From contig CAWHCF010000036.1 of the NCBI GenBank assembly GCA_963827655.1, positions 232,827 to 296,826 on the forward strand: DNA of 64,000 nucleotides. The letters are read 5' to 3'. This document shows, piece by piece, positions 7,979 through 61,088 of this stretch. The notes below the pieces were generated by a model, which ran no database searches, was not told the origin of the DNA, and saw only the letters and a program-made list of their open reading frames with translations. The stretch is from an uncultured Acidobacteriota bacterium. GTDB lineage: Bacteria > Acidobacteriota > UBA6911. Each line of letters starts with the position of its first letter. Position 1 is the stretch's first letter. The position numbers were made by a program, and so were the translations under genes.

Positions 7979-9751
7979 TCAGCGATTCGGCATCACCGGT
8001 AGGGCCACATGGGACGGGCGCGCGCGATCGTGGAAGACGGTCTGGCGCGCGGACCTCCACTCGGTATCGGTAGGAATAGGGTTCCCGGTATTCTGGTTCG
8101 GCGCTATGAAGGGATATGCGCTGCTCGAAATTTCGATTCGCACCCTATGCCCGGGCAGGAAGGCATGCGCGAAATCGAACAACTCGATCCGGAACTTCTC
8201 GGGTTTCCCGGGCGTGAGAAGCTCCGGGCGCTCGAGCCCGTTTCGATAACGCGCCCGGATGACGCCCGTTGGTAGCGTACCGAGTTTCACCGCGCGCCCG
8301 TCGGGATAGACATCCAGTATCTTGGCGGTGAAGTCGGTATCCCGGGCGTCACTGGCCGCAAACAGCTCGACGTGGCTGCGACCAATCACCTCCAGCCGGT
8401 CAGCCAGTGGATCGCTGGTGTAGACGAGTACGTCGTCGCGGCGCTCGATCGGTCGGTGGTCGAGAGGTAAGTCCTCGCCATTGAGCTTCGAAGGCACAGG
8501 ATTTCGAGGGTCGAAAGTAAAGCCATCGGGAGGCTCGTCGGCCGCGCTGTCCCAACTGAGTCGCCCATCCCCGGTGGCAGAGTTTGCTCGGCCGCCGCTG
8601 TGCAGGTAGAGGGGCCGGAACCGGGCATCGGCCGGCGGGTACTGATCGAAGCTGCGCCACTGGTTCAGTCCGGTAACGTAGACGCGGGCCCGCGGGAAGT
8701 CGAACTTCGGGGTCACTCTCTTCAGGTAATGGTCGAAAAAGGCGAGGTGAAGCGCTTTGTTGTCGACCACCGAATCGGAAGAGAAGTCCATGTCTCCGAG
8801 CTTGATCTTTCCGCCCAGAAAGGTGTCGTTGTGAGTCCACGGTCCGGCAAGCAGGTACTGCTGTTCGCGGGACGGAGAGTGTGCCGTCATGCCGCGCCAC
8901 CGGTGCATCGCCGTGGGCTGGTCACCGTCGAACCAGCCGGTGACGTGGAGGGCAGGAATGTCGAGGCTGCGGTAGACTTCGGGATCGAAGTGCAGCTTCT
9001 TCCAGTGTGGATCCCAGTCGGGGTGCTCCATGAAGGCCCGATAAAAAGGAATCCGGCGGCCAAATGCCTCGTCCATCGTCAGGAGCGGCCGGTGCTGGAA
9101 AACCTGGTCCCAGTCTGTGCCGGTGACATTGTCCCCCTGGTAGATCCGTCCCGAGACGAGGTTCAGCCACGGGATCGCCCACCCCATGACGACCGCTCCT
9201 CCGAGGTAATTGAAGATGCCGTCGAGAGCACCGGAGGCGGTGGGGGCGATACAGACCAGGTGAGGCGGACGCGCCCGAGCCGCCAGCCACTGCACTTCCC
9301 CCAGATAGGAAAACCCCAGCATCCCGACACGGCCGTTACACCACGGCTGCGTTGCCATCCATTCCACAGTGTCATAGCCGTCGTCGGCGTCCGTGAGATA
9401 GAAGTTGTACTCTCCTTCCGAATCTCCGCGTCCGCGCACGTCCTGGACGACCAGGACGTAACCACGGCTCGCAAAGAATGCCCCGTGTTCAGGGAATTTG
9501 AACAGCCCCCTGGTCTTGAGATAGGGCGTCCGGATAAGGAGCGCAGGGTAGCGCCCGGAATCCGGCGGGAACCATACGTCGGCCGAAAGGCGTACCCCAT
9601 CGCGCATCGGGATGCGCATGTCAAACTGCCTCCGGACCTTGGGGGACTCCTTTGATTGTCCCCAGACACCCAGATTCGCCGCGAGCGTCAGCAACGCGAC
9701 GGCAAAACCGGGAATCGACCACCGAACCGAACCTGACAGAGTCAAGGCCAT
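7979..9751 (-). CDS. CocE/NonD family hydrolase (peptidase S15-like)
   Basis: IPMRDGVRLSAD, IRTPY, QDVRGRGDSEG, GFSYLG nucleophile, GWFD, GPWTH, C-terminal PepX-like domain. Confidence 0.93.
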   Translation of the reverse strand: MALTLSGSVRWSIPGFAVALLTLAANLGVWGQSKESPKVRRQFDMRIPMRDGVRLSADVWFPPDSGRYPALLIRTPYLKTRGLFKFPEHGAFFASRGYVLVVQDVRGRGDSEGEYNFYLTDADDGYDTVEWMATQPWCNGRVGMLGFSYLGEVQWLAARARPPHLVCIAPTASGALDGIFNYLGGAVVMGWAIPWLNLVSGRIYQGDNVTGTDWDQVFQHRPLLTMDEAFGRRIPFYRAFMEHPDWDPHWKKLHFDPEVYRSLDIPALHVTGWFDGDQPTAMHRWRGMTAHSPSREQQYLLAGPWTHNDTFLGGKIKLGDMDFSSDSVVDNKALHLAFFDHYLKRVTPKFDFPRARVYVTGLNQWRSFDQYPPADARFRPLYLHSGGRANSATGDGRLSWDSAADEPPDGFTFDPRNPVPSKLNGEDLPLDHRPIERRDDVLVYTSDPLADRLEVIGRSHVELFAASDARDTDFTAKILDVYPDGRAVKLGTLPTGVIRARYRNGLERPELLTPGKPEKFRIELFDFAHAFLPGHRVRIEISSSAYPFIAPNQNTGNPIPTDTEWRSARQTVFHDRARPSHVALPVMPNR

Positions 9752-10051
9752 GCCTCTCGATAAACGCGCCGCACGTCAGCGCTCACTCTTCCTGGCCCAG
9801 CGAGAGCCGGTGCGTCGCACGTGTGATCCGCGTTGCTCTGCGCAGCTGCATTCTTTCAGGTACGCGGATGAACGCGTAAACCGCGGCTCGATATCAGCCG
9901 CTGAAACTCTTACCAGATCCCGAGGTGAAAGGCCACGACGTTGACATTACCGCATCCTTCTCCTACGATGCCCCGCGCCGGCGACTCTCTCAGTAATACA
10001 GGCGAGATCTTACAGTGATCGGGCCGGCAGTCGTCCAAGGCGGAGCTTGAT

Positions 10052-11524
10052 GTGATGCGCGTCGTAACTGGAGGGATCAGCCACGAGACCAGCACCTTCA
10101 CGCCCATCCCGACAACCTGGGGGAGTTACGACGAGCGCTTCAATCTTCGGGGAGCGGCCGTGCTGGAGACCTTTCGCGGCACTAACACGCCGATCGGCGG
10201 CTTCATTGAGGGGTCGGAGTCACACGGTTTCGAGCTGGTACCTACCCTCTTTACCGAGGCATTTCCCAGCGCGCCGACACCGCGGAGAATCTTCGACTTG
10301 CTGCTCGGCGAACTGCTGCAACGGATTGAGGAAGCGGGGCCAGTCGATGGCGTCCTGCTCGACCTGCACGGCGCCATGATCGCCGAGGGAATCGACGATG
10401 CCGAGAGCCACATTCTGGCCTCGGTGCGCGGGCTCGTCGGCCCGAAGGTTCCGATCGTGGCGCAGCTCGATCTCCACTCGCACATGTCGCACCGCATGAT
10501 CGAGATTGCCGACGTTCTCATCGGGCGGGAGACCTACCCGGAGGTCGATATGGCCGAGCGCGGGCGAGAATGCGCCGACGTCTTGGCCAGGATTCTCAAG
10601 GACGGTCTCCGGCCCGCGACGGCGCTTCACCAGGTCCCGATGGCGTGGTGCGGCAATGATGTGACTGCCATGCCGCCGGCCAGTGAAGCGATCGCCGAGC
10701 TGCACCGGATCGAGCGTGAGCCCGGAGTCGTCTGCGGCTCCATCGCCATGGGGTTCCCCTTTGCCGACGTGCCCGACATGGGCGTGTCGGTGTTCGTCGT
10801 CACCGACGGCGATAAGGCGCTCGCACAATCCTATGCGGACCATCTAGGCGAGTGGATCTTCGACAGGCGACAAGTCTGGTGGGATTTTCCCATGCCGAGC
10901 ACTCGAGAGGCTCTCGACCTGGCCCGAATCGAGCAACGCTTTCCCGTGATCTTTGCCGACACGAACGACAACACAGGAGGCGGGACCGCGGGCGACAGCA
11001 CGGGCATGCTCGAGGTCTTCCTCGAGGCCAAGCTCGAGGACGCGTGCCTGCTTTACATTGTGGACCCTGAGGCAGTCGCTCAATGCGCCCAGGCGGGAGT
11101 GGGCGCGACGGTAACATTGAACGTCGGCGGGAAGTCCTCCCCGCTGCAAGGACGTCCGGTCCGCATGACCGCCGAGGTTATGGGGCTGGCTGACGGCCGC
11201 TTTCGCTACGACGGGCCGATGTATGCCGGGCTCGAGGGCAATCTGGGTCCCTCGGCCTGGATCCGTCAGGTGGGAGTCCATGTTGTGCTGGTGAGCAAGC
11301 GCGAGCAACCCTTCGATGCGGCCCTGGCGCGCACTCTGGGGCTGGAACCGCGCCGGATGCGCTACCTCGGGCTCAAGTCGAGCGGTCATTTCCGAGCCAG
11401 CTTCGGGTCATGGGCCGGGGCCATACACGTGGTTTACGAGCCGAGCGTTCACGACTTCACGCTGAGAACGCTCCGTTTCCACAGGCTCGGCCGCGAGCTT
11501 TACCCGGTCGACGGCAGGTGGTAG
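10052..11524 (+). CDS. M81 family metallopeptidase (MlrC-like)
   Basis: HETSTF, DLHGAM, LDLHSH, TYPEVD, DNTGGGTAGD, LKSSGHFRA. Confidence 0.92.
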   Translation: MMRVVTGGISHETSTFTPIPTTWGSYDERFNLRGAAVLETFRGTNTPIGGFIEGSESHGFELVPTLFTEAFPSAPTPRRIFDLLLGELLQRIEEAGPVDGVLLDLHGAMIAEGIDDAESHILASVRGLVGPKVPIVAQLDLHSHMSHRMIEIADVLIGRETYPEVDMAERGRECADVLARILKDGLRPATALHQVPMAWCGNDVTAMPPASEAIAELHRIEREPGVVCGSIAMGFPFADVPDMGVSVFVVTDGDKALAQSYADHLGEWIFDRRQVWWDFPMPSTREALDLARIEQRFPVIFADTNDNTGGGTAGDSTGMLEVFLEAKLEDACLLYIVDPEAVAQCAQAGVGATVTLNVGGKSSPLQGRPVRMTAEVMGLADGRFRYDGPMYAGLEGNLGPSAWIRQVGVHVVLVSKREQPFDAALARTLGLEPRRMRYLGLKSSGHFRASFGSWAGAIHVVYEPSVHDFTLRTLRFHRLGRELYPVDGRW

Positions 11525-16153: not shown

Positions 16154-16387
16154 TCAGACCTTCGGCAACTCTTTGCTCCCGACAATCGTCAGATTCAAGC
16201 CGATCTGGACCGAGACCGGCGTCCCGCCCACGTCCAGGGTCACCTTGCTATTGAGGTACCAGCCAAGCGAGCCGGTCGAAAACTCTTTGACCTCCGCCAT
16301 AAACGGGACGTTGGCAATCGTTACCGGCACCGGCTTTGCCTTGCCCTGAAAGTCAGCGCGGGTAATGGGGCAGCTCGTCTTGGCCAT
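16154..16387 (-). CDS. Small conserved-looking hypothetical protein (77 aa, beta-rich)
   Basis: ATG preceded by AGAGGA; GC3-biased codons; KEFSTGSLGW and VQIGLNLTIVGSKE motifs. Confidence 0.7.
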   Translation of the reverse strand: MAKTSCPITRADFQGKAKPVPVTIANVPFMAEVKEFSTGSLGWYLNSKVTLDVGGTPVSVQIGLNLTIVGSKELPKV

Positions 16388-16509
16388 CAGCAGGTCCTCT
16401 TGAATGGTCGAAGCGTAGGGTTGGTAAGGGAGTCGGCATCATACCACGCACCCCGCGGGGGGCGCCAGCAAGTGAGCCATTCAGTCCAATCCGCGGATTT
16501 GCTCGGACG

Positions 16510-18069
16510 TCATGTGGCGGGCTCCGTCCGAGGCAAAGTTGATTCCCTCGGTGATGGAGAAAGTAGCGCCGCAGACTCTATAGGAATGGCATCCCGGCGG
16601 GAGCGGCAGAAGCGGTAGAAGAGGTGGCGGACTCGCGACGCCTCGACAAGCGGCCGCCAAACCGGTCCGGTCAACCTGTGGCGGATGAGGAAGGGCCAGA
16701 GCCAGTTCGATTTCTTATAAAGCAAGGACATGGCGATATAGGGAAGAACTGCGGCAGCGTGCTCGGGCCGCCGCCGCCAGATTGACTTCAGCGAGAACAG
16801 CGTGTGGTACGACCAGGCATAACCTTCCTCCAGTGCCTCCGGGGACATGTGTCTGGGGAGGAAAACCGCGTGCCCCGTATCATAAAGCTCCCAGTCACGA
16901 TGCAGGATTCTTCTCTGAGATTCCAGCTCGCGGAAGAGGGGCGTCCCTGGATAAGGCGTGAGAATGTGAAAGGTCGCATTTTCCAGATGCGCGCCTTCGA
17001 TCCAGCGAACCGTCTGCTCGAAGACATCGGGGCGATCGTGATCGAATCCGAAGACAAAGCTGCCGTTCACCTGAATGCCGAACTGGTGGAGTAGGTCCAC
17101 GCGTCGGGCATAGTCCTCGGGCCGGGGAGTTTTTTTGTGCGCATCCTCCAGGTTTTCTGCAGTGATGGACTCGAAGCCGACAAAGACGCCCACGCAGCCC
17201 GAAAGGGCCATCTCCCGAACCAGGCCGGGATCATCCGTGACATCGATGGTTACCGCGGCGCTCCAAATCTTCCCCAGACGGGCCATTTCCCGGCAAAGCT
17301 GGCGGAGATAGCGCGGCCGGGAGCCGAGGTTGTTGTCGACGAACACGGCGTAGGGCTGCGCGTCAGATCGAAATTCGTCCACGACCTGCTGCGCGTCTCG
17401 CATGAGATAAGGCATGTGCAGACCTTCCGTTGAGAGATAACAGAAGTCGCAGCGATTGTGGCAGCCACGCGTGGCGATAAGACTGGTGGTCGTCAAGAAG
17501 GACCGGCGTGGAAGGAGCGACCGACGAGGTGGAGGATCGTCGCGGTAGGGTCGGCGATAGCTCCCGAGATAACGCGGTCGAAGCCGCCCGAATTCGACAT
17601 CCCTCAAGATTGCCGGCCACAGTTGTACTCCTTCTCCAAGGGCCAGGGCATCGGCATGCGGCGCCGCCTCCTCCGGACAGCTCAGGACGTGAAGACCTCC
17701 GAGCACGACCCTGGCCCCGCGTGTCCGATACCAGTGCGCCAGTTCGTAGGCACGTCGCGCGAACGTCAGGTGAACGGTAATACCCACGACCTGCGGGAAG
17801 GGCTCGAACGGGGGATGCCCCTGCAGCAGGTTTTCGTCCCAGTAGCGAATCGACCAGTCGGGCGGAGTCGCGCCCGCGATGGAGGTGAGGGCGAGCGTCG
17901 GCGTCAGGACATGTTTGCCAAAGCTCGCCACCGGATCTTTGGGATAGAAGGGATTGATCAGAAGCGCACTTTTGGGCTGCGGGATGCCCACGCGGCGGTC
18001 GCAGCAAAGCTCAGGCGCGACCCTCATGCTGCGGGGCCAGAAGTATCCCTCTCTGCCATCAGGTCTCAT
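16510..18069 (-). CDS. Cobalamin-binding radical SAM protein
   Basis: VVLGGLH and GEG B12-binding domain motifs, TRGCHNRCDFC cluster motif, VGFES, TPYPGTP. Confidence 0.92.
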   Translation of the reverse strand: MRPDGREGYFWPRSMRVAPELCCDRRVGIPQPKSALLINPFYPKDPVASFGKHVLTPTLALTSIAGATPPDWSIRYWDENLLQGHPPFEPFPQVVGITVHLTFARRAYELAHWYRTRGARVVLGGLHVLSCPEEAAPHADALALGEGVQLWPAILRDVEFGRLRPRYLGSYRRPYRDDPPPRRSLLPRRSFLTTTSLIATRGCHNRCDFCYLSTEGLHMPYLMRDAQQVVDEFRSDAQPYAVFVDNNLGSRPRYLRQLCREMARLGKIWSAAVTIDVTDDPGLVREMALSGCVGVFVGFESITAENLEDAHKKTPRPEDYARRVDLLHQFGIQVNGSFVFGFDHDRPDVFEQTVRWIEGAHLENATFHILTPYPGTPLFRELESQRRILHRDWELYDTGHAVFLPRHMSPEALEEGYAWSYHTLFSLKSIWRRRPEHAAAVLPYIAMSLLYKKSNWLWPFLIRHRLTGPVWRPLVEASRVRHLFYRFCRSRRDAIPIESAALLSPSPRESTLPRTEPAT

Positions 18070-18465
18070 AGCGAGGTCCTTTCACTTTATATTGAGAAGT
18101 ACTTTACATATGCTAAAGCTTTCTGTCGAGAGGAATCCTCTGTCAAGACACCGCGCCGAATAAAAAGATGTCGGAGCGGGCCGTGCAGGGTGTCGGCGAG
18201 GTTGAGCGCGTAGATGGGAGCGCCGCCTCGAGCGGCCACGCACGAGTCTCTTTGAGGATGGCGGAGAGCGTGACCTGATCGACACGCGCACATAGAGGTA
18301 AAGTGGGCGCTGGGTCCGGGCGCCCGCGCATCCGCTCCCGCTGGCAAGAATGGGACTTCATCACCTCTCCACGAATGACGTGCTAAACACGCCGCGTCCC
18401 TGGATTAGAGAGTCATCGTTGCATTAACTTGTGGCTCGCTCTGACCCAACGATCTATGGGTCCGA

Positions 18466-49400: not shown

Positions 49401-51347
49401 TTCCGTGGCTAGCCAGAGATAACCCTCTCGATCTTCGAGAATCCCCCTGATTCCCGTATTTGGGAGACCGTCCTTGCGCGTGAAAACCGTGAAGGTTCCC
49501 GTCCTGGGATCAAGTGTTTGAAGGCCTGTAAAGGTGCCGATCCATAGCCTTCCCTGGCGATCCTCGCGCATGGCGCATACGCGATTGTGGGCCGGGGTCT
49601 GGAACTGCCGTGACTGATCGCGATAGACGGTGAATTGACCCGTGTTGCGGTCAAACCGATTCACCCCGTCGCGAGTCCCCACCCACAACGTTCCGGCTCG
49701 ATCCTCGAGGATGACAGAGACGGTGTCGTGAGATAGACTGTGACTGTCTTTCGGATTGTTGCGATAAACTCTGAATGTTCCTGTCGCCGGGTCAAATCGG
49801 TTCAGCCCTCCGTCCTGTGTGCCCACCCAAAGCACCCCTTGGCGGTCCACAAGAAGAGAAAGCACAAAATTGGTGCTTAAGCTGCCAGGCTGCTTCGTAT
49901 TGTGCTGGTATCTGAAGAATCGTCCAGTGGCGCGATCAAAGCGGTTGAGCCCTCCGCCGTAGGTTCCAAACCAAAGTGCGCCGGAGGCGTCTTCGCGAAT
50001 CGCCGTTACCTTGTCATAAGAAAGGCTGTGTCTGTCCTTGGGGTCATGCCGGTAGAGAGTGAATTGGCCACTGTTTCGATCCACCCGGTTGAGACCACCC
50101 TCCGTGCCCAACCAAAGGAATCCCTGGCTGTCGCCTTGGACGGCCCAAACCATATTGCGATACAAGCTGTTCGGATTACCTGCGCTGTGCTGATAGTTGA
50201 CAAACGGAAGAGGCCTTCTGGGGAAACGGCTCAGGCCACTCCGTGTTCCTACCCACATCATTCCTTCCCTGTCTTCAAACAGCGAGTAGACCCAATCGTT
50301 CGGCAGGCTTTTTGGGTCGGCAGGGTCCGTGCTGTACCGAGTGAACTGGGTGCGTTCAGGATTGAGTTTCAGAAGTCCGCGATCAATTGTGCATAGCCAG
50401 AGTATTCCCTCCTTGTCTTCATACAGGTTATCCACCCCGGCGAAGGCTTCGTTGCCTGATTCTCCTGGATGAAAGGAATAGCGGACGAATCGACCAGTCT
50501 TAACGTTCAGGGCACTGACGCCTCCCACCTTTGTGCCTACCCAGAGTACCCCTGAGTGGTCTTCGCGGACCGAAAGCACATCATCGTGGCCGAGGCTGTG
50601 GGGATCCATCGGATCGTGCAGGAAACGCGAAAACCGCCCCGTGGTTCGATCCAACTTGTTCAGGCCCCTTTGTGTACCTATCCACAGATTGCCCAGCCGG
50701 TCTTCAACAATGGAACTGATAAGACTATTGCTCAGGCTGCCGGCATCCTGGGGATCGTGCTTGTAGTGCAAGAAAGTTCCGCTCGCCGGGTCCAGGCGAT
50801 CCAGCCCCGCTTCGGTTCCAACCCACAGTATGCCGCCGCGGTCCTCGTAGATTTGCCAGACTCTGTCAGCGCTCAAACTCCGAGGGTTGGCGGGATCAGA
50901 CCGGTAGTGGGTAAAGATCTCCTGAGCTGGGTCGAGGCGGTTAAGCCCTCCAAAGGACGTGCCGATCCAGAGGATGCCAGCGCGATCTATGCAAACAGAT
51001 TGGACCCAGTCGTCGCTCAAGCTATTGGGATCGTCCGGATCGCGTCGGTAGGTCTTCAGGTTATATCCATCATACCGGTACAATCCAACATTGGTCCCAA
51101 ACCACAGGAATCCGTATTTGTCTTGCGCGATCCCACCTGTTATTCCACTTTGAAACGATTCCTTATCTACGGAGAGGTGGCTGAACCGGATATCCTGCCT
51201 ATCCACGACTGGAAGCTTCATGAAGCCGTTGCGAAGCGAAGCTGCGAGGCGGTCCTGCGTGCCCGCTCCGGACGCAGAGAGACAGAAAGGCAGCAGGACC
51301 CCGAGGGCAGAGAGGAGCATTGGTCGTAGTCTGGCCGAATGTGTCAT
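46443..51347 (-). CDS. Hybrid sensor histidine kinase: two-component propeller, Y_Y_Y, HisKA, HATPase, 2 REC, Hpt
   Basis: ED..G.LWIGT repeats, [30 protein letters not shown], two REC domains, [13 protein letters not shown]. Confidence 0.95.
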
Positions 51348-52033
51348 GGAGTCTGCCTACTGAACAGCGCGAATCCATTCCAGGGCGAATATCCGCGAGT
51401 GTGAGAGTTGCGCATGTGGAACGCAAAACGGCTATATCCAGGTCCTCGCAGTTCAGAAATCATACGCCTTCTCACAAACAGGAGGCTTCGCCAAGCGCTT
51501 CAAGGAATTCGGAAAGCAACCTTCCAGGAAAACTGCCCGAAGACCCGCAGTCTGATGCGCGACTTACAGAGAACCGAGCCGTGGGGGCCAAGTCACCATG
51601 CACTATGACCGCACACTGCACCAATAAAAGGCAAAGGTCGGGACTAAATGATCGATCGGGGAGAAAGCTGACAGTCCTCTGCGCAGCGAGCTTTGGTTCA
51701 AGGTTTCGCGTCGGTCATCGAATCCGCAGGTCAATCATTCCTTGCTGACTGACTGTGAGCGATCCCTCGTGCCACCAAGCGAAATATAAGCGCCTGTTCT
51801 TGAGAATGGGTTCACGCCCGAGAGCTTCCGACTTGTGATGTCATCTCGACTGCGCGCGTCTTCCCCGGCAATTTCCCGCCACGCCGGATAGTCTATCACG
51901 GATTTTGCGGACTCGCTTCCCGAGGAGGCGTCCATCCAGGCACAATATCTTGCCACGATCGGCAATGATTGACGCCACGTCAGGATCACAAGAATGGCCC
52001 GCGGATCTGGGGACCTCGAGCGAGGCTGAGTCG

Positions 52034-53875
52034 CTATCTTGTCGATTGCAGGGAGCCGAGACGAATCCGGGTTCCTACCGAGAGGTCATGCGCCCGAAAG
52101 GCTTCGATGGAACTGTAGCTGTACCAATGCCACTCCCCGACGATGTCTAGCCGTTTTGTGGCAGGCGCGATCAGCCTGGCTCGAGGAACATAATACCTTG
52201 TGGGTCGGGTGCCTTCGCTCCAGGAAAACGCGCCGCCGGCGTGGAGTACGACTCCGCCCATGAGGCGCACGTCGGCATAGGCACTGCCATGGTGGCCACG
52301 GTCGCTGTATATGGAAATGTCGCGCCGAAAGAACGTCGGGTCGATGAACACGGAGGTCGAATCTATGGTTTCTCTCGAGTAGGTGCCCACGAGTATCGTT
52401 CGCCGTGATTGATTGGGTGTCCATTCCACCGTTACGGCGGCTTGCCGGCTTTGGAAGTCGATACCGACGTTCTCGTTGGACAGTGTCTTCCAAAGGCCGG
52501 TAACCTGCAAGGCATCCGTAATGCGCAACCGTCCTTGAAGGGCTAGCTTGCGGTAATCCTGCAAGCCGGTGCGAAAATAGGTCTCATCGCCGGGGGAGCC
52601 TTCGAAGTCGCCATTCAGCCGCGCGCGGCCCTTCCAAAAACTAAATGTCGCGCCCGCCAAAGCGACGTTTCGACGGATACGCGGGTTGTTTAAAACGGTT
52701 TCGGGGAAGATCAAATCCGCCGGCGGCAGATCCGTATCGCTGCGCACGTAACGATGGCCTGCCCGGACTGTTAACGCACGGCCGATATCGCCGGAGATCT
52801 CCGTTTCGCTCTGGTCATAATGGAGATTCAGATGCGTTCGTGGAGAGGAAACCGGCTCCAGCATCGCCGCGGTACGCGAAGCTCCGGAGATCTCAAAGTC
52901 ATCGGAGAACCAGTTGTAGCGCAGGCGCCAGCGGGGGTGCGGCCGGAACTCGGCGCTGAATGTCCCTGACGTATGGGGCTGGCTGGCGTCGGCAAAGCTT
53001 TGCTCGACCTGGGTCGTGTAGGGTCTGAGGGTTGCCGGGTCCTGGAAGATTCCTTCGGCGTTCAGTTCATGCGTAACTTCCAGCTCGGGACGGCTGTAGA
53101 CGAAATGCCCGCTGAGTGCCAGCTGCTGAAAAGGCTGCGCTTGAAAAAAGCCTCGGGTGAACGGCCCCGAACCGGACCCCTGATACTTCTCCAGCAAGTG
53201 TCCAAGAACGATCGTATCCTGCCGGTTTCCTCCATTGACACTGGAATCCAGCGTTTGGTCGTCGGTGTATCCGGTCCAACCCTGCTCGATGGTGGCGGTC
53301 CAGGCCTCGCCATTAAACTGCACACCGCCGCGCGCGGTTGTCAGCTTGTCGCCGAACGTTGTGAAGACGGGAAACTCATCCCCGCCCCCGACAAATGGCG
53401 TAATCCCCTGCCCGTCTCCTGAAGTGCGCAGGAGTCCAAAGAATGGCGTGACCCGCGATCGGGGCTTGAACCGGAACTCCATATCGAGTTGATTTCGCCG
53501 CAGGTCGATGGCGCGCTGACTGGTTACCGCTCCCTGCGCCAGCAGAGGATTGGCATAGGAAGGCAGATTGTTGAAGTAGGCTAGATCTCGATACTGCAAC
53601 TGAAACTCGTACACCTTCTCTCGGCGCAGGTCGAACCTCAGTTCGCTATTCGGATCGCCGCCCCAGTTATGCGCGCTGAAATCAATGCGATCTTTGCCTT
53701 CATAGCGTACCAGGGCATCGAACAGACGCGGCCCCTCCCCCAGGTTCACGATGCTTCGATAGACCTGTCCTTTGTCGCCGGTCACAAAGCGGTTCCTGAT
53801 ATCGAACTCGGCGCTGAAGGGCTCTTGTGCGTGAAGCCATCCCGCGGTGAACAGAATCACGACGAGAGTCTTCAT
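52034..53875 (-). CDS. MtrB/PioB-like outer-membrane beta-barrel porin
   Basis: Signal peptide, YRSIVNLGEGPRL, amphipathic beta-strand pattern, ATGA overlap with the decaheme gene; assignment relies partly on gene context. Confidence 0.75.
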   Translation of the reverse strand: MKTLVVILFTAGWLHAQEPFSAEFDIRNRFVTGDKGQVYRSIVNLGEGPRLFDALVRYEGKDRIDFSAHNWGGDPNSELRFDLRREKVYEFQLQYRDLAYFNNLPSYANPLLAQGAVTSQRAIDLRRNQLDMEFRFKPRSRVTPFFGLLRTSGDGQGITPFVGGGDEFPVFTTFGDKLTTARGGVQFNGEAWTATIEQGWTGYTDDQTLDSSVNGGNRQDTIVLGHLLEKYQGSGSGPFTRGFFQAQPFQQLALSGHFVYSRPELEVTHELNAEGIFQDPATLRPYTTQVEQSFADASQPHTSGTFSAEFRPHPRWRLRYNWFSDDFEISGASRTAAMLEPVSSPRTHLNLHYDQSETEISGDIGRALTVRAGHRYVRSDTDLPPADLIFPETVLNNPRIRRNVALAGATFSFWKGRARLNGDFEGSPGDETYFRTGLQDYRKLALQGRLRITDALQVTGLWKTLSNENVGIDFQSRQAAVTVEWTPNQSRRTILVGTYSRETIDSTSVFIDPTFFRRDISIYSDRGHHGSAYADVRLMGGVVLHAGGAFSWSEGTRPTRYYVPRARLIAPATKRLDIVGEWHWYSYSSIEAFRAHDLSVGTRIRLGSLQSTR

Positions 53876-54693
53876 CGCAGGAAATCCCGGTTCACAAACG
53901 AGCCATGAGTCTTCGCATGGCAGACGGTGCAGCTTTGATAGCGCGCACTTCGCAGGTCATGAAAGGCCGGCGGCGAGCCACCCGCAAACGACATGGTAGT
54001 CGTGTGGCACTCCAGGCACAATTGGCTCACATTGCTGCGAGTGAGCATGCGGGGATTGGCGGACCCATGCGGTTCATGACAACTTGCGCACGGCTGTACG
54101 CGGACCGGAGCATGCTCGAACGGGAACGGGCCGCGCTTGTCGCCGTGGCACTTGAAACACGCCGTGTCCTGGCCGCCGATGGCGCGCACTCGCGTTGCCG
54201 GCAGGCTGCCGTGCGGATCGTGACAGTCGCCGCAGTGGACTGCGCCTGAGGTCAGCTTATGCGCGAAGGGCCGTTCGAAGCTGGCTCGCACTGCCGGGTG
54301 GCAGCTCGAGCAGAGCGTGTCGCTCGATCGGCGGATATCGGGAGTGTGAACGCGATGGCAGGCATTACAGCCCACGCCGTTCCGCGAATGCGGCGACTCG
54401 AACCGCTGCATCTGTCTACGATCCTGCCCGTGACACTTCTGGCAGGACCGGTTGACCGTATCGGCCTGGCTGCCGGCGTAAATCTTAAGCCGCTCGGGAT
54501 CAAGCGCTTCAACATGCGCCAGTCCGGGTCCGTGACAGGATTCGCAGGACGAGTCGTGGTGCCGATTCTTATGAAACTCATCCGCCTGCGTCTTGTGGCA
54601 AACGGCGCACCGAGGCGATCCGACAAAGCCCCCCTGCGCGTACAGAGCAGAGCTCTGCAACACGAGCCACAGGACTGCCCATTCAGTTCGCAC
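53872..54693 (-). CDS. MtrA/DmsE-family periplasmic decaheme cytochrome c
   Basis: 10 CxxCH; FVGSPRCAVCH, CESCHGPG, CFKCHGDKRGPFPFEHAPV, CHEPHGS, CTVCHAKTHGS. GTG start inferred. Confidence 0.92.
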   Translation of the reverse strand: MRTEWAVLWLVLQSSALYAQGGFVGSPRCAVCHKTQADEFHKNRHHDSSCESCHGPGLAHVEALDPERLKIYAGSQADTVNRSCQKCHGQDRRQMQRFESPHSRNGVGCNACHRVHTPDIRRSSDTLCSSCHPAVRASFERPFAHKLTSGAVHCGDCHDPHGSLPATRVRAIGGQDTACFKCHGDKRGPFPFEHAPVRVQPCASCHEPHGSANPRMLTRSNVSQLCLECHTTTMSFAGGSPPAFHDLRSARYQSCTVCHAKTHGSFVNRDFLR

Positions 54694-57226
54694 TCTGAAG
54701 TTCCAGACCCTGGTGGCATTTGCGGCAATTGTGGAGCGTCGCAAACGCGGTTTTCCCCGGAGCATGACATGCGGCGCACAACTCGCCTCTTGCCTCCGCC
54801 GTTCGGTGATGGTCCGCCGAGTAGCCGGGGAGACCTCGGCGTCCCATCGGGAACAGTCTGTTGTGGCAGTCGCTACAGTCGCCTTTAGCCTTCCCGAGGT
54901 GCAGATTGTGATTGAACGTCACCGGACCGAGCCGATTGGCATAAGTCAAGGGCGCGTCGAGCGCGGCTATCGACCCGCGCGCAGTCAGCTCGGTATGGCA
55001 TTTCAGGCAATTGTCTTTGGCGGCAAAAGCCGTTCCATTGTCCCGATGACAGGCGCCACAGGAGGTTTTGTTCTGTTCGGCCGTTCGATGCAGATTATCG
55101 GCATATCCGAGCATGCCTTTGGCGAGAGGAAAGATTTGGTTGTGACAGCTTCGGCAATTTCCTTTGCTGATATCCACATGGCGGGCATGATCAAATTTGG
55201 CCGGCCCGAGTCGCGTCTCGATCGATCTCGAATCGGGCAACCCGGAGACGCCGGTTTTCGGCGTCGGACGTGGAGTCCCTAGACCCGTATGGCACCGCTG
55301 GCAATTGTCTGCAGAAGCAAATGCGCTGCCGGATGGAGCGTGACATCCGGCACAAGAGGTCCGCGCCGATTCGGCCGGCCGATGCAGGCCGGCGCGATAG
55401 TTGAGGTCGGCCTTCGCCATCGGAAATAGCTTGTTGTGGCAGGCGACGCAATCGCCTTTCGCGAGCGTCACGTGCTGCGCATGGTCGAACGCCGCCGTGC
55501 CCAGCGATGTGTCGTACCGTAACCCGCCCGGCAGACCCGGAGTGTCAGACGTGGAGACGCTGGCAGCCGTACGAAGAGGCGTGCTCAGGTTTGTGTGGCA
55601 GCGCGCGCACTCTCCCTCGGAGGCAAAGGCGGTTCCTCCCGGAGCGTGACAGCCCGCGCATGATGTGCGCGCTGCTTCGGCGGCTCGGTGAAGTTTGGCC
55701 TTGTAGCGTAGATCTCCGCGTTCCATGGGGAAATACTTGTCATGGCAAGCAGTGCACTCGCCATTGGCCCGCGTGAGATGCTTGGCATGGTCGAAAGCCA
55801 CTTCCCCGGCGGCGGACTGGTAGGGAATATTCGCGGGCATTCCGCTATCGGCTGACGCTGATCGTATCGCGACAGGCTCTGACACGGGTTCATTACGCTT
55901 CTCGATGCGGTGGCAGACGGTGCAGCTTTGTGAGACGGGCCTTCGCTGATCGTCCTGACTGACCAGCTCCGAATTGTGGCATCGGTAACATCCGTCGTGA
56001 CCGAGGAAATTCGGATGCGTGCCCCAGTCCACTCCCCATTCCGGGAATACATTGCGGCTGCGAATGGCCACCAGCTCCGTGGCGGCCTTCGAGATTGCGG
56101 CCCCTTGTTCGGCGGCAGCCTGCGGATAGCGGCTCTGGTAGAAGGCGCGCAGAGATTCCGGAATCGCATCCTTCTTTTTGAGTTCGGATAATCCCGCCGC
56201 CTTGATCTCGGGCAGCGTGTGGTCAATCTTCCCCTCGGCCAGGGCCTGGTCCAGGGCCCTGGCGGGGTCTTCAAAGCTATGCGCCGCCCGATTGTGACAA
56301 TCGGTGCAATCCATGGTGCGCAGCTCGCCGTTGGATGGCTGGGCGCCGGCACGAGCGAAGATTGTCTCTCGACCCTGGGGGTTTCGATAGCGAATCCAGT
56401 CAATCTTTTTGCGGTCCGGCGTCGACCGGTACTCTATTTGAGCCCCGTTTGAGAGATGAGCGCCGTGGGCGCCCAGCGGGTTGGCGCCTCCACCGATCAA
56501 AATAGCCAGTTGCGTACGGGTGGCGGAGTTTGCCGCATCCGAACCAAACTCAATGGCCTCCCATCGCTTGTTCCCGAAATCCCGCTCCGCATGACACTTT
56601 GAGCAGGTCAGCTTGCCCTGGGCGAGATTGTGGACCGGAGTAGGAACGGGAATGTGTTCGGTTCCCGTCATCACCTGCAACAGCTGTTTAGCGCCGTTGA
56701 GCTTGGCTGCCACGTACGATCTGGCGCCGGCACCGATGTGGCAGTCGACACACGGCACCTGGGAGTGAGGCGCGATCTTATAGGCCGTGAACTCGGGCGT
56801 CATGATATGGCAAGTGGACCCGCAGAACTCCACGGAATCCATGTGTTCAATGGCGGTGTACGTCAGGTGTCCTCCGATTACGACGTTCAGCACGGTGGTT
56901 ATGGCGAAGAAGAGGACCAGGTTGCGGAACTGAACATTGTTCCATCGAAGCTCGGGAAACTCTGCGGGCGTGCCGATCTTCCGTTTCTGCAGCCGAATGC
57001 CGAGAGGAATCAGTGCCAGTCCCAGGAAGAAGAGCGCGGGCAGCAGGAATACTGTCAACAGTCCGAGATACGGGTGGCTCGACCCGGTCAGATTCGCGGG
57101 TAATGTGAAGAGCCACGATACCGCGGCTGCAGTGACCAGAAAGATACCGATCCGGCTGATCCAGTTGCTGGATAGATAGACCAGAGGTCGCAACCGCTCA
57201 GCGAGCGTGGACTTTGTCGACGGCAA
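54683..57226 (-). CDS. ImcH/NapC-NirT-like membrane quinol dehydrogenase fused to four c7 triheme domains (18 hemes)
   Basis: 3 TM helices, FCGSTCH plus 5 CxxCH, WGTHPNFLGH; then 4 repeats of FxHxxH-CxxCH-H-CxxCH-CxxCH. Start codon uncertain. Confidence 0.9.
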   Translation of the reverse strand: MPSTKSTLAERLRPLVYLSSNWISRIGIFLVTAAAVSWLFTLPANLTGSSHPYLGLLTVFLLPALFFLGLALIPLGIRLQKRKIGTPAEFPELRWNNVQFRNLVLFFAITTVLNVVIGGHLTYTAIEHMDSVEFCGSTCHIMTPEFTAYKIAPHSQVPCVDCHIGAGARSYVAAKLNGAKQLLQVMTGTEHIPVPTPVHNLAQGKLTCSKCHAERDFGNKRWEAIEFGSDAANSATRTQLAILIGGGANPLGAHGAHLSNGAQIEYRSTPDRKKIDWIRYRNPQGRETIFARAGAQPSNGELRTMDCTDCHNRAAHSFEDPARALDQALAEGKIDHTLPEIKAAGLSELKKKDAIPESLRAFYQSRYPQAAAEQGAAISKAATELVAIRSRNVFPEWGVDWGTHPNFLGHDGCYRCHNSELVSQDDQRRPVSQSCTVCHRIEKRNEPVSEPVAIRSASADSGMPANIPYQSAAGEVAFDHAKHLTRANGECTACHDKYFPMERGDLRYKAKLHRAAEAARTSCAGCHAPGGTAFASEGECARCHTNLSTPLRTAASVSTSDTPGLPGGLRYDTSLGTAAFDHAQHVTLAKGDCVACHNKLFPMAKADLNYRAGLHRPAESARTSCAGCHAPSGSAFASADNCQRCHTGLGTPRPTPKTGVSGLPDSRSIETRLGPAKFDHARHVDISKGNCRSCHNQIFPLAKGMLGYADNLHRTAEQNKTSCGACHRDNGTAFAAKDNCLKCHTELTARGSIAALDAPLTYANRLGPVTFNHNLHLGKAKGDCSDCHNRLFPMGRRGLPGYSADHHRTAEARGELCAACHAPGKTAFATLHNCRKCHQGLELQSAN

Positions 57227-59201
57227 ATTGCGATCCCGTTCCGTGGCATGTCGCACAGCTCTCACCGAATCTCGATGAGATGTTGAGGTCGGCATGCGCA
57301 GCGGTCGAAGTAGTGGTGTGGCAACTCAGACACGCGCCCGTCGCCGGCGGTGACGGGTTGAAGAATCCTTTGGGATCAATCGCCGATGCAAGATTCTCTA
57401 GCAGCGGCAGCTGTTCCGACCCGTTGTCATGACAGGCGCCGCAGTCGTTTCTCGGCCGCGGATAGCGAAGCCCATTGTAATTGGTCCCCCCAATGGTGTA
57501 TTCGCGCGTATTGTCCACACCGAGATGGATCCGATGAATCATTTCCTTGAAGTTGATCGACTCCGGCGGGTTGGCCTCGTCGGTCCCGGTAGGATTGTGA
57601 CAGAGCACGCACTGCAGCGGGTCGTTGCGGTTCGAGCCGTGGAAATTGAGAGAGTAATGGCAGACGCTGCATTTAGCGTTGTTACGACCTGCCGCCGCGG
57701 TTTCACGGTCGTGTCGGTCACCCGGAAAGACAGCACTACGTTGTGGCCCGCATCTCGCACTTCCCTTTGCTGCAGCGTTCCCGGCAGCAAGATTTCGTTT
57801 TTGTAACCTTCAATTCCCACAGTCCAGCTCAGTTTCGCAGCTTGCGGAAGCGCAGCCTGTGAATTGATAGGTGTACCGTCCGTCCGCACCCGCCGAGGCC
57901 ATCCGAGCGTCTTCGCTGATGTAGGGCCCGTTGTCGGCATTCGAATCCACCGGTCCGGCGAGTACCAGAGCCAGCCTGTCCAGTGACGAGGGAGCCAGCG
58001 GCTTGTCTGATTTGTCGCTCACACCGAATGTGACGGCCGGGCTTTGACCCGGCGCCGTATTCTGAATACCGAAGAGCTGGAATTTGACGCCGGGTAGAGA
58101 CTTGGAGAACCTTTCAACGGTATGGGCGCCCTTGATCGAAATGTCGAATTCCAACTCACCTTCGGGGATATGGCACTGACGGCATTGGTTGTCCGATACC
58201 TGCGGCAGCGCGGCATGATTTTCTCCGGTGGCGAAATTGACATTGTCATGACAGCTTCCGCAGGCGCGGCGGCTCGGGTTGGTCAAGTGCTGATTGCCGG
58301 TGGCGCCTTCCAGGTGGCAGACGGTGCAGTTACGGACATCGGCCGGGAAGACGACCGTAGAATAATCGTGGACGGATTGATTATTGCCGATGATCACGTA
58401 GGGTTTGCCGGCCATGACGCTGGGTAAGCCTGATCCCTGATGGATCTTGTGCACCATGGTCGTAAAATCCACGGTGTTACCGGTGTCGGGATCCGTTGTC
58501 TGCGGAGTGTGACACATAATACAAACCTCAACCGTAGTCCGGCTGCCGTGAAAAACCAGCGGGGTTCCGTGGCAGGAGTCGCATTTCTGATTGGACGTAA
58601 TCTGCCGGGTTTCTGTCACGGCTGAGCCGGCCGGTACCCAGTTGAAGGTCTTCGCCGCCAACGAGTTACTAAGCTCGAATTCAGACAAATCGCGGCTCGC
58701 ATAGGCGCCAACCGTGTGGGTAGCGGTCCGATCGTAGCCGGTGGGCAGTTTTGTGTTGAACCGGTATTCGTACACTCCGTCGCTGATCTTGGTGAAGGTG
58801 CCTCCGGAATCGGTAGCGGCTTGAATTGCACTCACGCCATTTGTGGGGCTGGTCTGAGTTCTGGTGATGTAGGAAGTGTATATGCCCTGGCCGCGCGGAA
58901 TGTAGCCCAGCAGGGAGCTGATGCTCACCGGACCGGGCGTGACAATACCCTCGCGATCAAGCGGTAGTCCCTGGGGATCTGTAATCTTGAACTGATACCG
59001 GACGGTACCGTCCGCATCCACGGTTACGGACAGAATATTCAGCACGAGTCCTGGCCGGATGAAACTCAGTTGCTGCTCATCAAGAAACGCAGCTTTGCTT
59101 TTCTGAGTTGAGTCTTTTTGAATGCTGACTGCAGCCCAGCCGGAAATGGCCAGACAGCCGACAAGCAGGGTCGTGACTCTGAACCGCGTTTTGTTTGTCA
59201 T
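57198..59201 (-). CDS. OmcA/MtrC-family decaheme cytochrome, interrupted by compensating +1/-1 frameshifts (about 57850 and 57680)
   Basis: Two beta domains each followed by 5 CxxCH (CDSCH, CIMCH, CTVCH, CGSCH, CRQCH; CSVCH, CVLCH, CGACH, CLSCH, CATCH); FHGSR, MVHKIH and MIHRIH motifs. Confidence 0.9.
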
Positions 59202-59307
59202 GAAGACCTTATGGTTGCGCGAACGCTAGGTTCTAACACAAGGATGCGCATAGGTGGCTTTTAGCCGACCGCTGAGCATGCACTTGCCAAACTACGGTTC
59301 CGGATTC

Positions 59308-59367
59308 GCGTTATTATAAGCTCTGGGGGTTGCGTGATTATAAGCCCTGGGGGCCGCCAACAGTCAA
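59308..59367 (-). promoter_or_regulatory. Tandem 22-bp repeat with two TATAAT boxes upstream of the cytochrome operon
   Basis: GCGTTATTATAAGCTCTGGGGG (59308-59329) and GCGTGATTATAAGCCCTGGGGG (59332-59353); TTGACT lies 19 bp upstream of the distal TATAAT on the minus strand. Confidence 0.5.
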
Positions 59368-59663
59368 GCAAACTCTTCTGTAGGGACGCCAGCTCGGATA
59401 GACCGCGTGGAGAGCGACCAGTTTGAGTAGACGCCGCCAAACTTCCCGGCAAAACTGTGATTCGGCCGTATGGCTGTCCAGGCTACGCACTGCCGGGCCT
59501 TCGACCTCTCCAATCTGTTCACGTCTTCTGACGAGCCGGCTTTGAGCTTTCTCCAATCGTTTCACGTCTCTGAGCTATTGTTTCTTTCTGCTGAACCACA
59601 GGCCGAAGGCCGGCAGAAGCTAGGCCCACGCCGAGCGATGGACTACTGGCGGCAGTGGGGTCA

Positions 59664-61088
59664 TCACATCGTCCATGTTTTGACCTGGGCGGGCCCGGGC
59701 TCTGACGTGTAGTAGGCAATTCGTTTGATATTCAGCAGATGGGTGTATGTCACGCTATCGGTCGTGGAGTTGCCGCCCCATGTCCCACAGCCCAGCGTCA
59801 ACGACGGCAGCAACCCAGTCGTCAGCCCGGTCAGACCCTGCGTGCCCGGCGAATTCACCAGGATGCGGCTGGCTGGCATCGACGCCGCGAAGCGCTCACT
59901 GAGCTTGGTGTTGCGAGTGTGGATGATCGCCGTGTGACCCATCCCGTCAATCGCAAGCAGCGCGCGGCAAACGCGGAGTCCTTCGTCCGCGTCGTTGACT
60001 GTGAAAAGGCTGAGCACCGGCGCCAGCTTCTCGGCCGCCAGCGCATTCTCCGCAACCACGTCCTCGCTCGGGATCACCAGCAATCGGATCGGGTAGGGAC
60101 GCCGGATCTGCGCCAGCGAGGCCACAGTCGTGGCATCCTGGCCGATAACCGACCGTATAAGGCGATGCGTTTGTGGATCGACCGCCGCATCTCGAAAGCG
60201 CTCGGCCTCCTCTGCACTCAACACCGCGGCGCCCTGAACCTCCAGTTCCTTGAACAAGGCTGGGCGGACACTCGCCTCGACCACCAGGTGATTTTCAGCC
60301 CCACAGATCAGCCCGTTGTCGAACGGTTTACTGTACACGACGCTGCGTGCGGCGTGGTCCAGATCGGCGTCGGCGCTGATCAGCACCGGAGCGTTGCCGG
60401 GCCCGACGCCAATCGCCGGCGTGCCCGAACTGTAGGCAGCCTTGACCATCGCCTGGCCGCCGGTCGCCAGCACAAGTCCGACCCCTGGGTGACTCATCAA
60501 AGCCGCAGTGGTGCCGCGACTGCTGCCGCCGCCCAGCCACTGCACCAAATCCGCGGGCGCGCCATGCGCACTCAGCACCTCCTGGATCAGTGCGCCCACC
60601 CGCTGCGAAACCTGCACCGCACGGTGGCTGGGGCTGAGAATCAGCGCGTTGCGACCTTTGAGAGCGATCAACGTCTTGAAGATAAAGGTCGCCACCGGAT
60701 GGGTGGCGGGGATGAGCCCGACGACGATGCCAACCGGGCTCGCGATCTCAGCGAGCTGGCGCCGACTGTCAAAACTGATTTCGCCATGCCCGATTCGACC
60801 GGCCAACTGCTGGTAAATCCCGAGGCTGGCAATGCGGTTTTTGAGCGTCTTATCCCGGACATTGCCCATGCCGGTCTCGGCGACCGTATCTACGGCGAAT
60901 CCTTCGGCGTGGTCGCTGACGACCTGGGCCAGCGCCTGCAGGAGAACGTCGATTCGCGTCTCGGTCCAACTCTCGATCAGCGGCCATGCCGCCTGCGCTC
61001 GCTCGATCAGTTCTCCGACAACCGGGTCGGCCTGTGGTGGCTGATCGGTAAGGCGGCGGATTTGGTGTTGTGCTTGGGCGCCGATCAT
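59664..61088 (-). CDS. CoA-acylating aldehyde dehydrogenase (AdhE-N/EutE-like)
   Basis: ETGMGN, IPATHP, LATGG, GVGPGN, FDNGLICGAE, EKLAPVL, GHTA, PSLTLGCGTWGGNS. Confidence 0.93.
   Translation of the reverse strand: MIGAQAQHQIRRLTDQPPQADPVVGELIERAQAAWPLIESWTETRIDVLLQALAQVVSDHAEGFAVDTVAETGMGNVRDKTLKNRIASLGIYQQLAGRIGHGEISFDSRRQLAEIASPVGIVVGLIPATHPVATFIFKTLIALKGRNALILSPSHRAVQVSQRVGALIQEVLSAHGAPADLVQWLGGGSSRGTTAALMSHPGVGLVLATGGQAMVKAAYSSGTPAIGVGPGNAPVLISADADLDHAARSVVYSKPFDNGLICGAENHLVVEASVRPALFKELEVQGAAVLSAEEAERFRDAAVDPQTHRLIRSVIGQDATTVASLAQIRRPYPIRLLVIPSEDVVAENALAAEKLAPVLSLFTVNDADEGLRVCRALLAIDGMGHTAIIHTRNTKLSERFAASMPASRILVNSPGTQGLTGLTTGLLPSLTLGCGTWGGNSTTDSVTYTHLLNIKRIAYYTSEPGPAQVKTWTM

Follow-up and report, generated by a model that had tools for sequence, protein, structure and literature searches.

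Of all the steps in extracellular electron transfer, passage through the periplasm is the least well understood; Shewanella and Geobacter are believed to rely on soluble shuttles for it. Shewanella encodes CymA and the shuttles apart from mtrCAB. An acidobacterial Group 5 of MtrCAB clusters has been defined for which, in contrast to almost all other groups, no neighbouring gene for a putative quinone oxidoreductase of the inner membrane is reported (Baker et al. 2022, PMC8805035). An Mtr-like conduit of Bryobacterales has been described under the name 'EET2' (bioRxiv 10.64898/2026.05.27.727921). The hallmarks given for ImcH of Geobacter are three N-terminal transmembrane helices, a first haem motif of the form CXXXCH, homology with NapC/NirT, and additional CXXCH motifs (Levar 2014, PMC4251993), the atypical motif being followed by five to nine typical CX2CH motifs (Zhong & Shi 2018, PMC6295460). 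Known ImcH homologues are stand-alone proteins, for which the abstract of the latter survey gives 6–10 haem-binding motifs (its Table S3 has proteins of 374–603 aa, three rows with 13 motifs), and its text reports no mtrAB or mtoAB adjacent to imcH.

Here we describe a cassette of four genes (A, B, C, and D) on the minus strand, at 52034–59201, of a 64,000-nt stretch of contig CAWHCF010000036.1 from an uncultured Acidobacteriota bacterium (the window; coordinates refer to the whole stretch). An earlier reading of this DNA (the original prediction) had taken the cassette for a 38-haem operon encoding a full conduit from the quinone pool to the cell surface. Our analysis partly supported that interpretation, in that the parts and the probable role were right and the completeness was not. 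The computations established the family or fold identity of the four parts, a predicted complex of C within D, and the conservation of the genes as a block. It is quite probable that the cassette is an Mtr-type trans-envelope conduit of a soil bacterium in Bryobacterales in which the inner-membrane and the periplasmic stages are one protein, B.

Family and fold of the four gene products

In the open reading frame (ORF) listing, four minus-strand ORFs filled the interval in the order A, B, C, and D. The start of D (53875) shares 4 nt with the stop of C, and C and B overlap, as do B and A. The junctions were bridged by independent contigs (X1, X3, and X4) of three DNA metagenomes from different studies of soil or rhizosphere, mostly 95–99% alike: those of D/C/B by X1 (53540–54892), and that of B/A by X1 (56634–57827), X3 (57107–57463), and X4 (57063–57362). 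The genes, their overlaps and their families were all found where the original prediction had placed them, with the exception that A, the mtrC-like gene, is interrupted.

With the OmcA/MtrC model TIGR03507, A scored 299.9 bits in its 5ʹ part (cut-off 209.3) and 140.6 bits in its 3ʹ part; reading through the one TGA gave 443.4 bits. Read in this way, A has 10 CXXCH motifs, all in one frame; as a single intact ten-motif protein it does not exist in this assembly, where five motifs lie before the TGA and five after it. The proposed 10-haem OmcA/MtrC-like protein was therefore correct as to family but not as to integrity. The sequence LVGC (residues 13–16), which follows a basic N-terminus, fits a lipobox and is a putative lipoprotein signal for display at the surface.

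B was confirmed as an ImcH/NapC-like fusion with 18 haem motifs, namely 17 CXXCH and one CX3CH (CGSTCH, residue 158). The NapC/NirT model PF03264 matched residues 127–212 with 43.6 bits (cut-off 24.1), and the NrfH model TIGR03153 scored 61.7 bits, under its cut-off. Three N-terminal transmembrane helices are predicted from hydropathy only (45–69, 73–103, and 121–145), and the first haem motif, the CX3CH, adjoins the third of them; it is followed by CXXCH at 182, 231, 330, 436, and 458, a family-like spacing. When residues 1–480 were used as the query, 137 proteins were found, the best 120 of which were listed. Among the matches listed, all 81 stand-alone homologues (478–536 aa) had a CX3CH followed by five to six CXXCH motifs, spaced closely to those of GSU3259 as tabulated, at positions 132, 156, 205, 311, 428, 448, and 486 (PMC6295460 Table S3). 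Homologue N-termini aligned near residue 25 of B, and its true start may perhaps be the TTG at 57226.

With 870 aa, B lies outside the size of stand-alone ImcH (~450–600 aa), having four added c7 domains. The c7 trihaem model TIGR04257 matched four tandem stretches with 164.2 bits in total (cut-off 40), and the C-terminal half of B matched the solved dodecahaem PDB 3ov0_A with an E-value of 1.1e-29. We take 3ov0 to be GSU1996, a wire of four c7 modules. A wire-like shape is described for GSU1996-type proteins (PMC11492766). In Geobacter, ImcH reportedly has the Ppc family of trihaem cytochromes as interaction partners and passes electrons to PpcA (Pimenta 2023, 10.1101/2023.05.03.539133), so B joins known redox partners. 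A C-terminal haem extension of ImcH also has precedent, since Table S3 of PMC6295460 includes three deltaproteobacterial homologues of 582–603 aa with 13 haem motifs.

C matched the DmsE family model TIGR03508 with 199.6 bits (cut-off 192.2) and has 10 CXXCH motifs, in agreement with its earlier assignment to MtrA/DmsE with 10 haems. C may begin at a GTG (54693), where it would overlap the stop of B (54685–54683). D has no haem motif and no cysteine. It had no relevant sequence match in the PDB, the sole hit at E ≤ 1 being an unrelated ATPase inhibitor (E 0.97), and it is a barrel by structure prediction. The AlphaFold2 model, made with an alignment of 18 homologues from related clusters, is all-beta with ~28 strand elements (mean predicted local distance difference test score, pLDDT, 81.9; predicted template modelling score, pTM, 0.73). 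In a Foldseek search against the PDB its top match was 6r2q_B, the MtrB of the Mtr complex, with an E-value of 8.7e-15 and template modelling (TM) scores of 0.67/0.64; the next matches were TonB-dependent receptors with TM scores ≤ 0.49.

The complex of D (residues 17–613) and C (residues 45–297) was then predicted in three runs, with alignments for both chains and with three controls. The median score of the three runs was 0.88, compared to 0.00 for the best of the controls; the mark for this score was reached by 116 of 157 solved complexes and by 2 of 215 mismatched pairs. Contact agreement between runs was at least 79%, and partner pLDDT was at least 78. In the predicted complex, residues 97–297 of C line the barrel interior and touch strands all round, with the N-terminal part of C outside. 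The original prediction that D is a barrel holding the decahaem thus finds agreement in the MtrB-like model, its top match and the predicted complex.

Conservation of the cassette and fused B-C frames in relatives

Genome contigs were scanned with an alignment of B; 80 loci were kept, and 11 loci with full-length B were examined. The order A-B-C-D was present in 6 of these 11 (L052, L053, L054, L055, L056, and L057). The nearest relatives belong to Bryobacteraceae and Bryobacterales; the carriers were Bryobacteraceae, Bryobacterales including a cultured isolate (L053), and metagenome-assembled genomes (MAGs) labelled 'Acidobacteriota', which agrees with the probable acidobacterial origin proposed earlier. 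A further locus, L060, has B-C-D, and an OmcA/MtrC gene is thus found in six of the seven related cassettes. Because the genes flanking the related cassettes differ between loci, the four genes travel as a unit. Metagenomes with the sequence came from soil, rhizosphere, and one freshwater sediment, those with near-identical sequence from soil and rhizosphere.

Clusters without B also occur among the relatives. MtrA-like genes were present in 31 of the 41 genomes searched, the window's own included, and in 12 of the 14 loci retrieved the cluster was the simple A-C-D, A and C being direct neighbours; the other two had only a C match. In the MtrA tree, 7 B-bearing clusters were split from 12 B-less ones by a branch with support of 100/99, a topology consistent with B having been either gained once or lost once. 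ImcH-like genes occurred in 26 of the 51 genomes of the window's order in the Genome Taxonomy Database (GTDB); outside the window's genome they had ≤ 41% identity and stood outside the mtr cluster. One related genus has three genomes in which a stand-alone ImcH-like gene shares a contig with a plain mtrC-mtrA-mtrB cluster, at a distance of 31–35 kb (Table 1), and this could be a loose linkage that preceded an insertion of the window type. In a genome of another family (G040), an ImcH-like gene with 34% identity to residues 26–469 of B lies on the opposite strand ~5 kb beyond the porin gene (L017:15970–17367). The Terriglobia MAG locus L070 has a full-length B-like gene (8001–10469, 31% identity) and, ~6 kb away on the opposite strand, a gene for a D-like barrel (16373–18214, 33% identity), with no A or C match above 90 bits at that locus; it may be another arrangement of the same parts.

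In L054, L055, L056, and L060, B and C formed one open frame of 1163–1192 codons with 27 CXXCH motifs and one CX3CH. Among the listed best 120 of 137 protein matches, 22 clusters of 1142–1177 aa were of this B-C type, and 12 clusters of 740–878 aa were B-like. As the two genes are a single frame in relatives, B and C are expected to act together (Rosetta-stone evidence). A short hydrophobic, signal-peptide-like stretch was found at the B-C junction in 21 of the 22 clusters (in 18 of the 19 scored automatically; three were read by eye), and P0027 has a 19-residue polar linker there. The B-C frames may encode one 28-haem chain spanning two membranes, or their MtrA part may also be separately started or processed. 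If the junction stretch were a stop-transfer helix, the MtrA part would end in the cytoplasm.

The cassette is bordered in the window by a hybrid sensor kinase of 1634 aa, with Reg_prop beta-propeller repeats, Y_Y_Y, HisKA/HATPase, two receivers, and Hpt. A regulatory tie between the two is unsupported, since the kinase is not conserved beside related cassettes. A conserved regulator or neighbour was likewise rejected as a reading, neither the histidine kinase nor the aldehyde dehydrogenase nor the alcohol dehydrogenase having a counterpart beside L052–L057. On the other side, 462 nt without a cytochrome ORF separate mtrC from the upstream genes for the aldehyde dehydrogenase and Zn-dependent alcohol dehydrogenase, and an extra cytochrome gene in either intergenic interval (51348–52033 or 59202–59663) was rejected, with no CXXCH in the six frames. 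Terminator-like sites were at chance level in our scan (9 found, 7.5 expected).

Table 1. Coordinates of the cassette, its flanks, and related features in other genomes
Feature	Location	Strand	Description
Gene A	59201–57198	−	Gene for a decahaem surface lipoprotein of the OmcA/MtrC family; broken in this assembly
Gene A, 5ʹ ORF	59201–57810	−	463 aa, 5 CXXCH, ends at TGA 57812–57810
Gene A, in-frame continuation	57809–57198	−	202 codons, 5 CXXCH, stop 57200–57198
Gene A, out-of-frame segment	57678–57860	−	Between extra base 57859/60 and missing base 57678–82; includes TGA 57812–57810
Gene B	57295–54683	−	870 aa; ImcH-type domain (~1–480) fused to four c7-type trihaem domains (~490–870)
Gene C	54765–53872	−	297 aa; DmsE/MtrA-family periplasmic decahaem, signal-peptide-like N-terminus
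Gene D	53875–52034	−	613 aa, Cys-free; MtrB-like barrel by fold, signal-peptide-like N-terminus
Hybrid histidine kinase	51347–46443	−	Flank directly downstream of the cassette
Acylating aldehyde (acetaldehyde) dehydrogenase	61088–59664	−	Upstream flank
Zn-dependent alcohol dehydrogenase	62447–61389	−	Upstream flank
G023:C19	3278–4687 and 35598–36395		ImcH-like gene and distant mtr cluster; one TGA inside the match of the G023 copy
G008:C27	30307–31695 and 66508–67296		ImcH-like gene and distant mtr cluster
G019:C15	18638–19429 and 53369–54406		ImcH-like gene and distant mtr cluster
B-C single frames	L054:7992–11483; L055:7971–11474; L056:3729–7226; L060:7932–11510		B and C in one open frame
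B-C single-frame protein clusters			P0011–P0027, P0029, P0031, P0034–P0036

Interruption of mtrC and competing explanations

Several points weigh against the cassette being a trans-envelope conduit. Gene A is interrupted as assembled, and no second OmcA/MtrC gene was found in the window's own genome, which is 90% complete. D had no Pfam or NCBIfam match at E ≤ 0.01, any MtrB/PioB model included, so that of the family models suggested for checking the cassette, those for OmcA/MtrC and DmsE scored above their cut-offs and that for MtrB/PioB did not match. The high score of the D and C complex may be the model's memory of 6r2q, because the Mtr complex is already solved, and it would speak for likeness, not for binding. 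B was likened to Geobacter ImcH by described hallmarks and motif positions, not by sequence alignment. No sigma-70-like promoter was found in 51200–59800, in a scan that covers acidobacterial promoters poorly. Four short contigs of a soil RNA library (X15) lay on A and B with 95–99% likeness; DNA carry-over is possible, and they are no evidence of expression.

The break in A traces to two 1-nt indels, a base too many near 57859/60 and a base too few near 57678–82, which put ~59 codons out of frame and result in the in-frame TGA at 57812–57810. Around this TGA, likeness to homologues was present only in the second frame, over the ~59 codons, and the main-frame translation was unlike them. Selenocysteine insertion or stop recoding at the TGA was rejected, as these flanking codons match the other frame and the two indels explain the stop. 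Relative to the assembly, X1, X3, and X4 all lacked one base at 57859/60 and had one extra base, after 57678 in X1 and X3 and after 57682 in X4. Since the three contigs are free of both indels, mtrC is intact in the sister populations, and the homologous mtrC genes of relatives were open in eight of eight cases, with 10 CXXCH each. Elsewhere in the four genes, the listed length differences from the three metagenomes were 3-nt and in frame; such indels of the sister populations fall at 52691–52694 (porin gene) and 58839 (mtrC) of the window, and are ordinary strain variation, unlike the two frame-breaking ones.

Either the break is an error introduced locally in assembly or polishing, or this strain has an mtrC pseudogene of its own. 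If the indels are real, the cassette could here be a decaying remnant, with MtrAB and ImcH-c7 and no working surface cytochrome, which would resemble an Mto/Pio-type MtrAB-only system or be functionless. We hold this to be a serious possibility, though an unlikely one. The assembly has both indels, neither of them in a homopolymer, the genome offers no other mtrC, and the neighbouring 1634-aa ORF is intact; as the four genes elsewhere show only 3-nt in-frame indels, the assembly is not generally indel-prone, and this keeps the pseudogene reading alive. However, the out-of-frame segment still matches homologues in its other frame, indicating no decay, as would be expected of an error or of something that happened very recently. 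The other three genes (B, C, and D) are intact, three populations that are 95–99% alike lack both indels, and a local artefact of consensus building or polishing would also account for two indels that compensate each other exactly over 180 nt. Only with the indels as assembly errors, or in the sister populations without them, would the conduit be complete. The full quinone-pool-to-surface conduit claimed for the operon therefore does not hold as assembled, and its 38 haems are reached only by reading A through the TGA and counting the CX3CH of B.

Electrons could also be carried inward, by uptake from Fe(II), reduced humics, or cathodes as proposed for MtoAB/PioAB, B then being a quinone reductase; we consider this direction improbable. 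Multihaem chains are reversible in principle, but the cassette includes an MtrC-type surface lipoprotein, which Mto/Pio systems are not known to have. Homologues of Mtr, CymA, and CbcL are reported from Fe(II) oxidisers (Baker 2022, PMC8805035; Zhong & Shi 2018, PMC6295460), whereas ImcH homologues are reported from Fe(III) reducers only (Zhong & Shi 2018, PMC6295460), and Geobacter ImcH is described as serving high-potential acceptors (Levar 2014, PMC4251993). It is very improbable that the cytochromes, as in DmsEF-DmsAB, supply electrons to a terminal reductase of the periplasm or outer membrane and not to minerals. C does score on the DmsE family model, but a Pfam/NCBIfam scan of the flanks found no terminal reductase gene, molybdopterin or other, adjoining the cassette in the window; none is a conserved neighbour in the relatives, and the OmcA/MtrC gene recurs in all but one of the related cassettes. 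In keeping with the original prediction, the operon is very probably not one that serves a periplasmic terminal reductase only.

Proposed electron path and comparison with known systems

An outward-directed conduit could work as follows. The ImcH-type N-terminal domain of B, held by its three-helix anchor, would oxidise menaquinol at the periplasmic face, and electrons would pass along its 12-haem tail of four c7 domains, which, being covalently tethered in the periplasm, would replace diffusible c7 or STC/FccA-type shuttles. From the tail they would reach the periplasm-exposed N-terminal haems of the MtrA-like C, threaded through the MtrB-like barrel D, and the MtrC-like surface lipoprotein A would reduce Fe(III)/Mn(IV) minerals, humics, or electrodes. 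We infer the quinol oxidase activity, the contact of B with C, the outward flow, and the acceptors; the mechanism is drawn from the families and folds assigned to the parts, from a single predicted complex, and from synteny and gene fusion.

More tentatively, the clade may cross the periplasm by a fixed protein wire, with ImcH-c7x4 docking directly on MtrA. In the 22 B-C clusters a single polypeptide would then be both anchored in the inner membrane and plugged into the porin, so that, with MtrC, ~38 haems would lead without a break from menaquinol to the surface and the two membranes would be covalently linked; this bolder proposal we regard as doubtful, well short of the confidence given to the conduit itself. 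For the periplasmic step, a quinol oxidase that brings a 12-haem tail of its own, is encoded between mtrC and mtrA and, in relatives, shares one translated frame with MtrA would be a 'hard-wired' solution found in nature. The cassette also offers a compact module of four genes (or three) for engineering, and it points to the abundant Acidobacteriota of soil and rhizosphere as likely to respire metals or humics.

There are earlier publications on Mtr clusters of Bryobacterales and on acidobacterial ImcH homologues. Our literature search, which extended neither to subscription journals nor to figures and supplements of the 2026 preprint, found no imcH::c7x4 gene inside mtrCAB, no ImcH-c7 or ImcH-MtrA fusion, and no paper pairing ImcH with Bryobacterales. 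In the main text of the EET2 preprint the terms 'inner membrane', 'ImcH', and 'fusion' do not occur, and its figures or supplements may show the gene (10.64898/2026.05.27.727921).

The cassette resembles Shewanella MtrCAB (6r2q) in its surface decahaem lipoprotein, in a periplasmic decahaem within a large barrel, and in the gene order C, A, B. It differs in that D has 11% identity to Shewanella MtrB in the structural alignment, with no match to a hidden Markov model, and in that a fourth gene stands between mtrC and mtrA. With Group 5 and EET2 it shares the taxon and the three core genes, but B lies inside the cluster, and the MtrA of B-bearing clusters forms a separate, strongly supported group. 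B is like Geobacter ImcH (GSU3259) in the three transmembrane helices, the first CX3CH, the NapC/NirT homology, and similar spacing, and unlike ImcH homologues in its 18 motifs, its dodecahaem tail, and its place between mtrC and mtrA. The four tandem trihaem c7 domains are those of the GSU1996-type dodecahaem (3ov0), which is a soluble periplasmic protein in Geobacter; in B they are the C-terminal half of a membrane-anchored quinol dehydrogenase.

A quinol dehydrogenase within the cluster, which the original prediction had presented as a peculiarity, is not one in itself, as nearly all Mtr groups are reported to include one or more members with a CymA homologue in the cluster, the exception being Group 5 (PMC8805035). 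The mtr clusters of Vibrio, Aeromonas, and Betaproteobacteria with cymA, netBCD, pdsA, or mtoC/mtoD are likewise self-sufficient (PMC8805035), but theirs are separate small proteins (CymA, NetBCD, and PdsA), not an ImcH-c7 fusion. Compared to these systems, the cassette is built of known parts and is new in their fusion and linkage; what is unusual is that the dehydrogenase is of the ImcH type, is fused to a c7 wire, and is encoded between mtrC and mtrA.

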